Positions 12,909-53,647 of a stretch of DNA of 64,000 nucleotides are shown in pieces (position 1 is the first letter of the stretch; every line of letters begins with the position of its first letter). Position numbers and translations under genes: made by a program. Under the pieces are notes generated by a model, which saw only the letters and a program-made list of their open reading frames with translations, was not told where the DNA came from and searched no databases. This DNA is from Octopus vulgaris (lineage: Eukaryota): positions 48,174,001 through 48,238,000 of the forward strand of contig OX597835.1 of assembly GCA_951406725.2 (NCBI GenBank), written 5' to 3'.

Positions 12909-13122
12909 CTCATTCAATACCTGGCTGACTCACACACACACACACTCACTCATTCACTCACTCACTCACTCACTCACTCACTCACTCACTCACTCACTCA
13001 CTCACTCACCTCTCTATGTCTATCTATCTATCTATCTATCTATCTGCTGAAAATGTCTTCTCAACTTGTTACTGCAGTTTCACGTGACCCTTCATCAGTC
13101 AGTTGTGATAATACAAAATTTC

Positions 13123-16584: not shown

Positions 16585-16900
16585 AAGGAATACAAAAATG
16601 GGACAAGAACGCAAAACATCCAGGCGGATGTTACAAAAAAAGGGACAAGAAAAAACAAGGACGAGGCATTCGGAGTTTTCTTTCCTCAGTCGAGTTCCAG
16701 ATTATCTTTGCAATTTCGGCTGGTTATATTCGAAATTGCTCAATCTGGCCAGCTACAAGGAAAAACTAAGTTAAAAGCACTAGATCCATATATATTGAGT
16801 AGAAATGGCTTTTCTGATAATCTTTCCACTTTGATAATTAGATGTTTATAAATTTGATTATTAAAGAGGAAAATTTATCAGTAAAGACATTTCTACTCAT
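16585..16900 (-). mobile_element. Structured short repeat family X, copy A, with a terminal foldback (16796-16899)
   Basis: Homologous to 27125-27272 and 27372-27645. Hairpin arms tgagtagaaatg..ctgataa / ttatcag..catttctactca. Confidence 0.7.
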
Positions 16901-20333: not shown

Positions 20334-21966
20334 AATTAAAAAAGGAGAATACGCACACTTATATAGTTTTAATATAATTTTTAATATATCGACCGGTTTC
20401 GCTATCACTATTCGTGATATTATGTTTTACTTATTTGAATATATACATTTTTCTTAAGAAGAAATTTGTGTGTGATCAAATTTATGAGTGAATGACTTCA
20501 CAAGTAGATAAATAAAGGGAGGTAATTGGTTGTCATTATTATTGTTACTGTTGTGGGTAAGTGAAATAACTGTTCAGCTTTCGGTAGTGGGTGGGGATTA
20601 TATATGTGTACAGACAGAGACAAGTTTCAAAAACCTTGTTTTGTAGGGGATTTATGTACAGTGATGTAATCGTGAATTGAAATTAAAAAGATAAAAGTTG
20701 GTTATGCGTGCATATTAAGACGTGTTTTGTATTTTTTAATGAAAAAAGTTTCTTGATTTAAACTTTCTAGTTGAGATTCTGCGTCTTTGCACTGGTAGAA
20801 AGGGAAGGCGGTGAAATTTGGTTTGATGTTACCTGCACATTTTTCTATATGTTCACTGAGAGGAATTTGTCTGTATTGCAGGACACGGATTTGCTCCTTA
20901 TGTAGAGTGGTTCTCTTTCTCATTGTCATACTCGTTTGTCCAATATAGTGGTGTCCGCAACCCGAGCAGGTTATTACATAAAATAGGTTCTCAGAGGCAC
21001 AAGTGAAACTAGTTTTAATTGTGAACCTCTTTCCTTGTTTGAAAAGGAAATCCGAGCCTTCAAGCAGGTTGGGGCAGGTTCCACAGTTTGGGTGTTCATA
21101 TTTTTCAACCGTTGGTTTCGTGGTAGTTTCGTAAAGCTTCGCATTTGTTAGTAGTCTCTTTAGCGATTTGTCCTTTTTTTGCATTTGATGAGTTTGTGTG
21201 TTTTCAGGATGTCCTTCATTTTTGGGCCTCTAGTTAGTAAAGGAAGAGTTTGCACAATAGTGTTGAATACCTCACTTTTTCTGGGGTTGTGTGTTGATAT
21301 AAACAGTAAAATAGTAATGTTTTGAGTTGAGGTGTGGTATTATGTTTTTTGTTCTTAGTGTTTTTGTGTCTAATTATTTGGCACGTTTAATTCCCTCGTC
21401 GATAAGTGGGGATGGATATTGTTTTTCAATAAGTGTTGTTTTCAGGTCTTGAAGACGAAGGTTCTATCAGACGAGTTGTTCTATCAGACACTATTGTGCA
21501 GACCCTATTTGCTAAGGTGAAAGGGATGTTTATCGTTATGTGTTTTGGGTGACATGAGTTAAAAAGAAGATATTGTTTTGAATCAGTTGGTTTATAATAA
21601 ATGTCAGTTATGATTTCATTGTTAACTTTTTTTATCATGATGTCTAAATATGGAAGTTGTTCTTTGTTATATTCCATTGTGAATTGAATGTTACTATTTA
21701 TGTCATTTAGTGTTGTTTTGAAATCCAAAAGTTTGTCGATGTTCTCCTTCCAGATGATAAAGCAATTACCTCCCTTTATTTATCTACTTGTGAAGTCATT
21801 CACTCGTGAATTTCATCACACACAACACGGACCAAATTTCTTCTTAAGAAAAAATATATATTCAAATAAGTAAAACATAATATCATGAATAGCTATAGCG
21901 AAACCGGTCGATATGTTAAAAATTATATTAAAACTATGTAAGTGTGCGTATTTTCCTTTTTTAATT
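20334..21966 (-). mobile_element. 5'-truncated Penelope-like retroelement with inverted pLTR copy
   Basis: RT C-terminus (NIQFTMEYNKEQLPYLDI..TDIYYKPTDSKQYL..SCHP..NIPF), linker CGTC, and GIY-YIG (NLFYVITCSGCGHHYIGQT..R..H), stop at 20702. 20334-20528 is the reverse complement of 21763-21966. Confidence 0.93.
21880..21914 (+). ncRNA. Minimal hammerhead motif in the PLE pLTR, A3-U8 core variant (partner copy at ~20386-20421 on minus)
   Basis: atatc-ATGAATA-gctatagc-GAAA-ccgg-TC-gatat. Confidence 0.65.
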
Positions 21967-26540: not shown

Positions 26541-27124
26541 AGATGTACTCGCATAGCAAGTGATATATATTTTATATATATATATACATGTATACATGTA
26601 TGTAGGCATGTGTGTATGTATGTTTGTATGTATGTATGTATGTTTATGTAGGGATTTACAGGCGTATCTTTCTTTACTCAGAAACATATAATTAATACTT
26701 GAAAGTCTTATTGCATTAGAAGCGAGAAGCCTAATTCTCAGTTTCACTCAACCGATTATTCAAACGATTGAAGTATAGAAACAATCTTGAGATGAAAATA
26801 TGAGCGTATTTACAAAGCGTTATGGAAAAGCTCTTGCATTTATCTATTCTATTGTGATACACAGTATTCATGATACTGTCATATATTTGCGTGGTATCTT
26901 CCATATCGTGTGTTTAAAATACATATAAAGAACGAAAACGTTGGATATTTATAAAGTTTAGGATTTTTATGTTACTAACATTGTTGTTCGGTCGGTTAAG
27001 GGGACAAATTATGTGAGCCAGCCTGTTGTTGGAAATTCCTCAATAAATTAGGCTAACGTTGTCTGCAATATTTCACAAACAATGATAAGAATTCAAAACA
27101 TACAGACAGTTACAGACAGCTAGA

Positions 27125-27272
27125 TGATAGAAAAAGGGGAGAACAAATCATCCAGACAGACAATAAAAAAAAGAACGGGTCATTCAGAGTTTTCTTTCTT
27201 CAGTCAAGTTCCAAATTATCTTTGTAATTTCGGCTGCTTATACTCGGGATTACTCCAATCTGACCTGCTCCA
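27125..27272 (-). mobile_element. Family X, copy B (partial)
   Basis: tcattcagagttttctttcttcagtcaagttccaaattatctttgtaatttcggctg matches copy A at 16668-16721. Confidence 0.7.
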
Positions 27273-27283
27273 ATACACACACG

Positions 27284-27370
<87 letters not shown>

Positions 27371-27371
27371 A

Positions 27372-27645
27372 AAAAAATACAAACTGGGACAAGAACGCAA
27401 AACATTTAGAAGACGATACAAAAAACACGGACGGGACATTCGAAGCCTTCAATCTTCAGTCAAGAACCGGATCATCCTCGCAATTTCGGCTGATTAATCT
27501 TGAGATTGCTCCAATCTGGCCAACCCCAAGGAAAATCTAATCTAAGCGCATTAGATTCCTTGGAAGAAAGCTTCGAATGTATACAAAACAAAGATGGAAA
27601 AACGGACGATGTTACACGAATAAGGATACAAAAATACGTAAAAAC
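27372..27645 (-). mobile_element. Family X, copy C (best preserved)
   Basis: GGGACAAGAACGCAAAACAT..TCAGTC..GCAATTTCGGCTG..ATTGCTC.AATCTGGCCA is shared with copy A. Several nested stems. Confidence 0.75.
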
Positions 27646-27778
27646 AATAATAATAATAATAATAATAATAATATATATATATACATACATGCATATACAT
27701 ACATACACACACACATACACACACACACACATACACACACACACACATATATATATATATGTGTGCGTGTGTGTGTGT

Positions 27779-52001: not shown

Positions 52002-53647
<1,646 letters not shown>

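Follow-up and report, generated by a model that had tools for sequence, protein, structure and literature searches.

The minus strand of one short repeat insertion in the 64-kb window (the whole stretch of octopus DNA analysed here) is predicted to form a working split-core hammerhead ribozyme that would cut repeat transcripts after C17. The insertion, copy C of a repeat that we call family X, carries the three conserved hammerhead blocks in the order S, G, C (cleavage site, GAAA, CUGANGA), and its core appears to be opened between A9 and G10.1 and held by a four-way junction with an outer stem (helix X) and a hairpin (hairpin Y). Judged from sequence, the probability that this reading is correct is about 0.75; the structure is very likely real, and catalysis by the predicted ribozyme is likely. 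A non-circular block order is in itself known from Eckert 2023 (PMC10085705); what sets this motif apart is the core split at A9/G10.1.

Every hammerhead block that a first-pass annotation had assigned to this strand was found where it had been placed (Table 1), and the order, which it had called non-circularly permuted, was confirmed as S, G, C, matching none of the cyclic orders CGS, GSC and SCG. Its statement that established hammerheads comprise the cyclic orders only is outdated, as types SGC and CSG have been published (Eckert 2023, PMC10085705). Read 5' to 3', the upstream part consists of helix X, hairpin Y, the 10.x strand of stem II, helix b, GGA, stem III, C17 and stem I. Four nucleotides, the 11.x strand of stem II, GAAA, stem III, a 3-nt bulge with GAU and helix b follow the stem I 5' strand, and the 3' part runs from helix b through stem I and CUGANGA into helix X. 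The core thus comprises CUGANGA, GAAA and an NUH triplet with A15.1-U16.1, and covariation supports stems I, II and III. In copy C, U-U mismatches adjoin A9. A stretch previously taken for a 14-nt linker is paired, forming helix b together with a kink-turn signature.

Table 1. Features of the three family X copies, in positions of the window
Feature	Positions	Strand	Basis
Copy C, 5'-truncated family X insertion (3' ~300 nt), microsatellites on both sides	27371..27673	-	BLAST of the 769-nt tandem unit (locus L125), matching 27673-27368; end pattern in 30 loci
Helix X, 5' strand	27564..27580	-	MFE fold; 72% of cells paired; two-sided change at 11 of 17 pairs
Hairpin Y, ending directly before G10.1	27526..27563	-	MFE fold; 80% paired; equivalent place in Naiad ends
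Stem II 5' strand (10.1-10.6), moved upstream of the cleavage block	27520..27525	-	90% paired; G10.1-C11.1 in all seven groups
Helix b 5' strand, counterpart of the SGC/CSG stem I-II interaction helix	27513..27519	-	81% paired; two-sided change at 3 of 7 pairs
Putative kink-turn, non-bulged strand, between helix b and stem III	27510..27512	-	A at 27510 invariant in 26 rows, not selected for
Stem III 5' strand, last letter U16.1	27505..27509	-	98% paired
Predicted scissile bond after C17 (AUC triplet)	27503..27504	-	Hammerhead-core analogy; insertion 5' ends cluster at or just after it
Stem I 5' strand (1.1-1.6)	27498..27503	-	94% paired
Block G: stem II 3' strand, GAAA (27487-27484), stem III 3' strand	27480..27493	-	Block position; pairing statistics
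Putative kink-turn 3-nt bulge with GA and U, then helix b 3' strand	27467..27479	-	Pairing statistics
Stem I 3' strand (27465-27460) and CUGAAGA core (27459-27453)	27453..27465	-	All four letters at N7 among genome matches
Helix X, 3' strand, beginning directly after A9	27436..27452	-	MFE fold; pairing statistics
Copy B, older, decayed, truncated inside the stem II 5' strand	27090..27273	-	
Copy A, older, truncated inside hairpin Y, lacking the helix X 5' strand	16585..16785	-	

An Rfam scan of 27380-27640 gave no hammerhead match up to E 10. This 261-nt region returned two chance C/D sRNA matches (E 3-10), and over the whole window just microsatellite look-alikes were among the matches listed (150 of 378). 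On the minus strand of 27445-27482, weak Rfam matches liken the 3' strand of helix b and the core's CUGA to a box C/D pair; this likeness could reflect an alternative inactive fold, or chance.

The minimum free energy (MFE) fold of copy C includes helix X and hairpin Y, with z = -3.9, a value that none of 200 shuffles equalled. These two elements had earlier been proposed to close stem II, and they are a conserved feature. Stems I and II are pseudoknots in the proposed fold. With stem III forced and the pseudoknot strands left free, the pseudoknot-free MFE favoured other pairings by 7-9 kcal/mol in all four copies computed, while stems I and II as isolated duplexes return 11-17 kcal/mol, so that energy alone leaves the choice undecided.

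Pairing was scored in 26 family X rows, hand-picked from 126 parsed copies to span subfamilies. In this set 82% of cells pair, compared to 28-52% in slid controls, and two-sided change occurs in 27 of 55 pairs compared to 17.7 in shuffled data (0 of 500 shuffles as high); only rows with 13 or more of the 17 stem I-III pairs had been kept, and the rows share ancestry, which inflates the percentages and makes these figures support rather than a probability. The helices outside the filter were paired in 81% (b), 72% (X) and 80% (Y) of cells. This sample replaces the comparison of the three copies in the window, the only family X copies there, because copies A and B are decayed and truncated and mix decay with real change. 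Part of the covariation first suggested from the three copies, namely the stem I mismatches and the poor stem II of copy B, is decay. A double change in stem III of copy B is not the majority state among its nearest 30 relatives, although it is fixed in another subfamily. The displacement of stem II from A9, which had been listed as a weak point, is conserved together with the bridging helices. No clear foldback was seen at the ends of copy A, where one had been described; only TA-rich repeats are present there.

The same split-core architecture recurs in this genome in unrelated letters. The octopus Naiad end gave 494 genome matches against 0 for the control. A third repeat family, first seen in flanking sequence (L044:786-933 (-) and L028:2681-2828 (-), with further loci L171-L200), accounts for 3,714 candidates in at least three subfamilies. 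We compared seven groups from these three unrelated families (n = 49, 42, 3, 1, 5 (family X), 29 and 19). Their majority letters pair in 103 of 105 stem I-III cells, both misses falling in the single-copy group, and 13 of 15 stem I-III positions show two to four pair types. Only G10.1-C11.1 and A15.1-U16.1 never change, and H17 is C or A in all seven. The core letters in this comparison, as in the 26-row set and in the genome pattern count given below, were partly selected by pattern. Stems I, II and III remain paired despite sequence change in both the 26 rows and the seven groups. The linker between stems I and II measures 4 nt in family X and in the third family (Z), and 1 nt in the octopus Naiad. 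In the three octopus families and in ten Naiad records, the sequence following A9 pairs in helix X and not with the strand before GAAA. A generic descriptor of the split form yielded 68 distinct matches, one of which looks like chance; as these loci had been chosen for holding the motif, the informative figure is its 0 matches in 592,797 reversed bases.

A kink-turn consists by consensus of a 3-nt bulge followed by tandem G-A and A-G pairs. Measured against this consensus, the joint of stem III and helix b shows a 3-nt bulge and then GA opposite GA in full in five of the seven groups, in part in one, and in one it is absent in that register. The two adenines of the signature are invariant in the 26 family X rows, for which they had not been selected. 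The signature was not seen in the coral or Clytia Naiad records.

The strongest evidence comes from the Naiad ends of other animals. Craig et al. 2021 (PMC8557442) report Naiads to be without a canonical hammerhead, with no fold given in the accessible part, and eight Naiad records, Octopus included, are marked 'HHR_half_core' there. The supplement was searched for four CUGANGA words and the flanks were read by eye; words spanning line ends were missed, and the matches listed represent 52 of 62, 29 of 43, 22 of 23 and 24 of 25 places, with the Naiad file covered. Because only a 7-letter word was queried, all other helices are unselected. Among the matches listed, the split form was recognised by eye in 10 of 54 published Naiad consensus ends, from ctenophore, cnidarians, crustacean and octopus: Beroe, one Clytia, three Acropora, Morbakka 2, Eulimnadia, two Octopus and one part-12 record, which is probably Pomphorhynchus by file order, as some record names were assigned in this way. 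Located by the CUGANGA word alone, these ends contain GAAA together with stems I-III, helices b and X and hairpin Y, where X begins right after A9 and Y ends 0-1 nt before G10.1, in unrelated letters. In Beroe, stem I is short and helix X falls outside the text shown. None of the ten records has a stem II partner after A9. The octopus Naiad end and family X are unrelated in sequence and linked by architecture only. Covariation across subfamilies, unrelated families and phyla supports a pseudoknotted, non-circularly ordered hammerhead in a non-autonomous Penelope-like element (PLE); the first-pass annotation had proposed such a topology for a non-autonomous retroelement.

In the same supplement (File S5, by eye), six nematode Naiad records carry an intact type CSG with a GUC site. 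These ends are textbook CSG; in Eckert 2023 this type comprised just two sequences with modest covariation. Six further records (File S5, parts 16-19), arthropod or nematode by file order, have the S-G-C order and a clear helix b with a short or interrupted stem II, and were left out of the count; these SGC-like ends are possible intermediates. In 32 of the 54 records the motif was not seen by the CUGANGA-word search among the matches listed.

Family X is a non-coding, Penelope-like repeat with a unit of ~770-850 nt. In the searched genome (2.8 Gb in 227 contigs), the pattern from GAAA to CUGANGA has 11,202 matches compared to 27 for the reversed pattern, which rules out chance as the origin of the motif; N7 shows all four letters among these matches while the rest of the word is constant. 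For copy C there are 788 candidate relatives, of which 40 were scored and proved 96-100% identical; copies A and B have 1,712 and 2,480 candidates, respectively, at 83-92% identity. The 3' end lies fixed ~80 nt past CUGANGA and the 5' ends are variable (30 loci), and copies sit next to (TA)n or similar microsatellites. From direct partial tandems, the unit measures 769, 779 and 844 nt, with longest ATG frames of 114, 123 and 62 aa, and inverted pairs are also present. Non-coding unit, partial tandem and inverted copies, fixed 3' end, variable 5' end and microsatellite target together make the family retrozyme-like, and Penelope-like insertions with these structural traits are described by Craig et al. 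2021 (PMC8557442). None of 170 loci contained an ORF-bearing family X copy, the units have no Naiad-type ORF (N-terminal GIY-YIG, CxC motif, RT), and upstream of the motif the loci examined showed no PLE RT. A Neptune-like RT-EN frame in locus L126 and two broken frames in the window were considered as a coding partner and rejected, being separate insertions that lack the motif and are dissimilar to the unit. A subfamily with 844-855 nt units (L121-L123) comprises near-identical tandem copies, suggesting recent mobility, and lacks one G of the kink-turn signature; Craig et al. 2021 (PMC8557442) describe cephalopod Naiads as long inactive.

Insertions are expected to start at or just after the cut if the reverse transcriptase reaches a ribozyme-made end. 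A (TA)4 tract lies no more than 30 nt from the stem II strand in 25 distinct listed loci; in 23 of them the insertion begins 0 to +10 from the predicted cut, and in 2 it begins in the preceding 20 nt. Minus-strand junctions, counted once per locus, total 911 over that whole range compared to 79 in the 20 nt upstream; 80 fall in 20 nt downstream (about +16 to +35) and 67 at the site itself with 0-1 extra letter. The density thus rises from ~4 per position on either side to ~70 in the 11 nt that follow the cut (about 18-fold), a clustering to which AT-rich microhomology with (TA)n after the site, anchors of 12 versus 16-17 nt and possible RT stalling may contribute. Most family X junctions lie 3-10 nt past the site and not on it. 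In the third family, 25 of 33 listed loci start at 0 to +7, whereas the other 8 begin in the 23 nt that precede the site. Clustering is weak in the octopus Naiad family, where 12 of 23 loci lie at 0 to +7 and the control count is 16. We regard the pile-up of insertion 5' ends as a possible, indirect sign of in vivo cutting. Contigs from four sequencing runs tentatively taken as RNA cover the motif and are deepest 3' of the predicted cut, with no end pile-ups, which contigs cannot show; they are given no weight as evidence. In run X9, contigs over 27439-27492 of the window have a depth of 40,000-100,000 just 3' of this position compared to ~2,000 before it, and adapter letters at a loose end; as contig data, this peak may represent an abundant short RNA.

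In the mechanism that we propose, stacking of helix X on hairpin Y, and of A9-G12 on G10.1-C11.1, would let the core close without the A9-G10.1 bond, the X/Y stack acting as a strand-exchange junction in its place. Helix b would tie stem I to stem II in the SGC/CSG fashion, and in the octopus families the kink-turn may bend it from the tip of stem III back to the tops of stems I and II. Two tandem copies, each cut, would release one unit of ~800 nt, which the RT/endonuclease of an autonomous PLE may copy into (TA)n tracts. Cleavage after C17 would set the end of the RNA to be reverse-transcribed: cDNA reaching the cut end would give a copy starting there, and uncut, tandem or circular RNA copies running further.

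The same base pairs could also be assembled between copies. Here the loop of one unit, carrying the cleavage site and GAAA, would dock on a second unit's base, which comprises the stem I strand, CUGANGA, X/Y and the stem II strand, in a dimer or triangular trimer, and only tandem read-through transcripts would be cut. This is a variant of the preferred explanation and not its opposite, and we consider it unlikely, though it deserves to be taken seriously. Helix b and stem III would form one rod with the substrate loop at its tip and the core strands at its base, which in a single molecule would have to fold back via the kink-turn or a long linker. The helix lengths make such closure look strained, most of all in Naiad_EuTe (Eulimnadia), where b and stem III are nearly continuous and the lengths would hardly allow a fold-back; this keeps assembly between tandem copies a live alternative. 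Tandem units do exist, and animal PLE hammerheads are reported to work as dimers (PMC4209133). Folding in cis, however, would be eased by one long linker in the Clytia and nematode records, it suits the kink-turn signature, and SGC/CSG ribozymes cleaved themselves as single constructs (PMC10085705).

Less probable again is a fold that is real and hammerhead-derived but non-catalytic, kept because it gives the PLE RT a signal for recognition or stopping, in which case the insertion ends would come from RT stalling. That most junctions lie a few nt past the site fits this reading, the literature found holds no tested precedent for an A9/G10.1 split, and PLE hammerheads are reported to be weak in vitro (PMC4209133). 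Against it, the exact core letters, the NUH triplet and G10.1-C11.1 are preserved across phyla, and junction density stays at baseline in the structured stretches flanking the site. A degenerate canonical type I hammerhead, built from CUGANGA with a downstream GAAU and GUC and leaving the upstream matches incidental, was rejected as highly improbable. The usual PLE form is type I and family X does have GAAU and a GUC after CUGANGA, but GAAU breaks A15.1 and stem II does not form; moreover, these letters pair in helix X and are absent in the other families, which keep the upstream blocks. We give still less credit to chance pairings in an ordinary repeat end: the three copies in the window are weak evidence, two of them being decayed, but the descriptor's lack of matches in reversed sequence and the covariation across families and phyla leave almost no room for this explanation.

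Among known ribozymes, the split-core hammerhead resembles type SGC (HRIMA-1 and variants; PMC10085705), with which it shares the block order, a short stem I-stem II linker, the full core letters and a fourth helix that connects the remaining strands of these two stems, here helix b. In type SGC the stem II strand follows A9 within 1-2 nt, whereas family X has it upstream with X and Y bridging; furthermore, both strands of helix b connect to stem III, and octopus shows the kink-turn signature there. Type CSG (two metagenome sequences in PMC10085705) has the same cyclic order with block C intact, which is split in family X: opening a CSG at A9/G10.1 and sealing it between stem III and helix b yields the split motif. 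In vitro, cleavage occurs in SGC and CSG ribozymes, whose four core helices are the same (PMC10085705). In that paper, these validated types stem from metatranscriptomes and metagenomes, genomes of known organisms contributed none bar one GCS candidate, and CUGANGA with its adjacent stem strands was assumed to be uninterruptible.

Minimal type I hammerheads of PLE pseudo-LTRs and non-LTR retrozymes (PMC4209133; bioRxiv 10.64898/2026.07.22.740005) likewise lie near the PLE 3' end, occur in non-autonomous tandem derivatives and have a likely role in cutting precursor RNA, which for the split motif is a prediction. Unlike family X, they have a cyclic order, a tiny palindromic stem III and no more than a single additional nucleotide between 9 and 10.1. 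Naiad PLEs (PMC8557442) share (TA)n targets, partial tandems and inverted copies with family X, and the octopus ends its architecture, but family X is non-coding. We found no description of a split core or of permuted PLE hammerheads in the openly available literature searched; the available parts of the 2026 retrozyme preprint (bioRxiv 10.64898/2026.07.22.740005) and of PMC13725137 do not describe a split core.

On balance we favour, by a modest degree, the broader view that natural hammerheads have here a seventh architecture, one not covered by the six block permutations, with the core opened at A9/G10.1 and closed by a perfect four-way junction. It would be the missing ribozyme of many Naiads from ctenophores to octopus, with one clade holding a series of CSG, SGC-like and split forms, and in octopus its assembly via the kink-turn may give a dimer or a triangular trimer, so that cutting would be limited to tandem transcripts. 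If true, this would be a hammerhead wiring that the non-circular-permutation paper (Eckert 2023) assumed away, and it would move non-circular hammerheads from metatranscriptome RNAs to animal genomes in thousands of copies. It would also explain the apparent absence from Naiads of the ribozyme carried by other Penelope-like elements. As Rfam and standard descriptors miss the split form, invertebrate ribozyme counts may be far too low. Moreover, an A9/G10.1 junction that tolerates two helices would offer a new insertion point for ribozyme switches.

The window also contains other PLE-related sequences. Broken Neptune-like PLE RT/GIY-YIG frames at 20714-21767 (-) and 52395-53617 (-) are 48-69% identical to an unbroken 410-aa stretch in L126, and the 3' ends of both carry the GAAACCGG palindrome typical of minimal type I hammerheads whose first half is decayed. 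Candidate canonical or minimal type I hammerhead cores lie at 13098 (-), 28978 (+), 58260 (-) and 58557 (+), the latter two forming an inverted duplicate.
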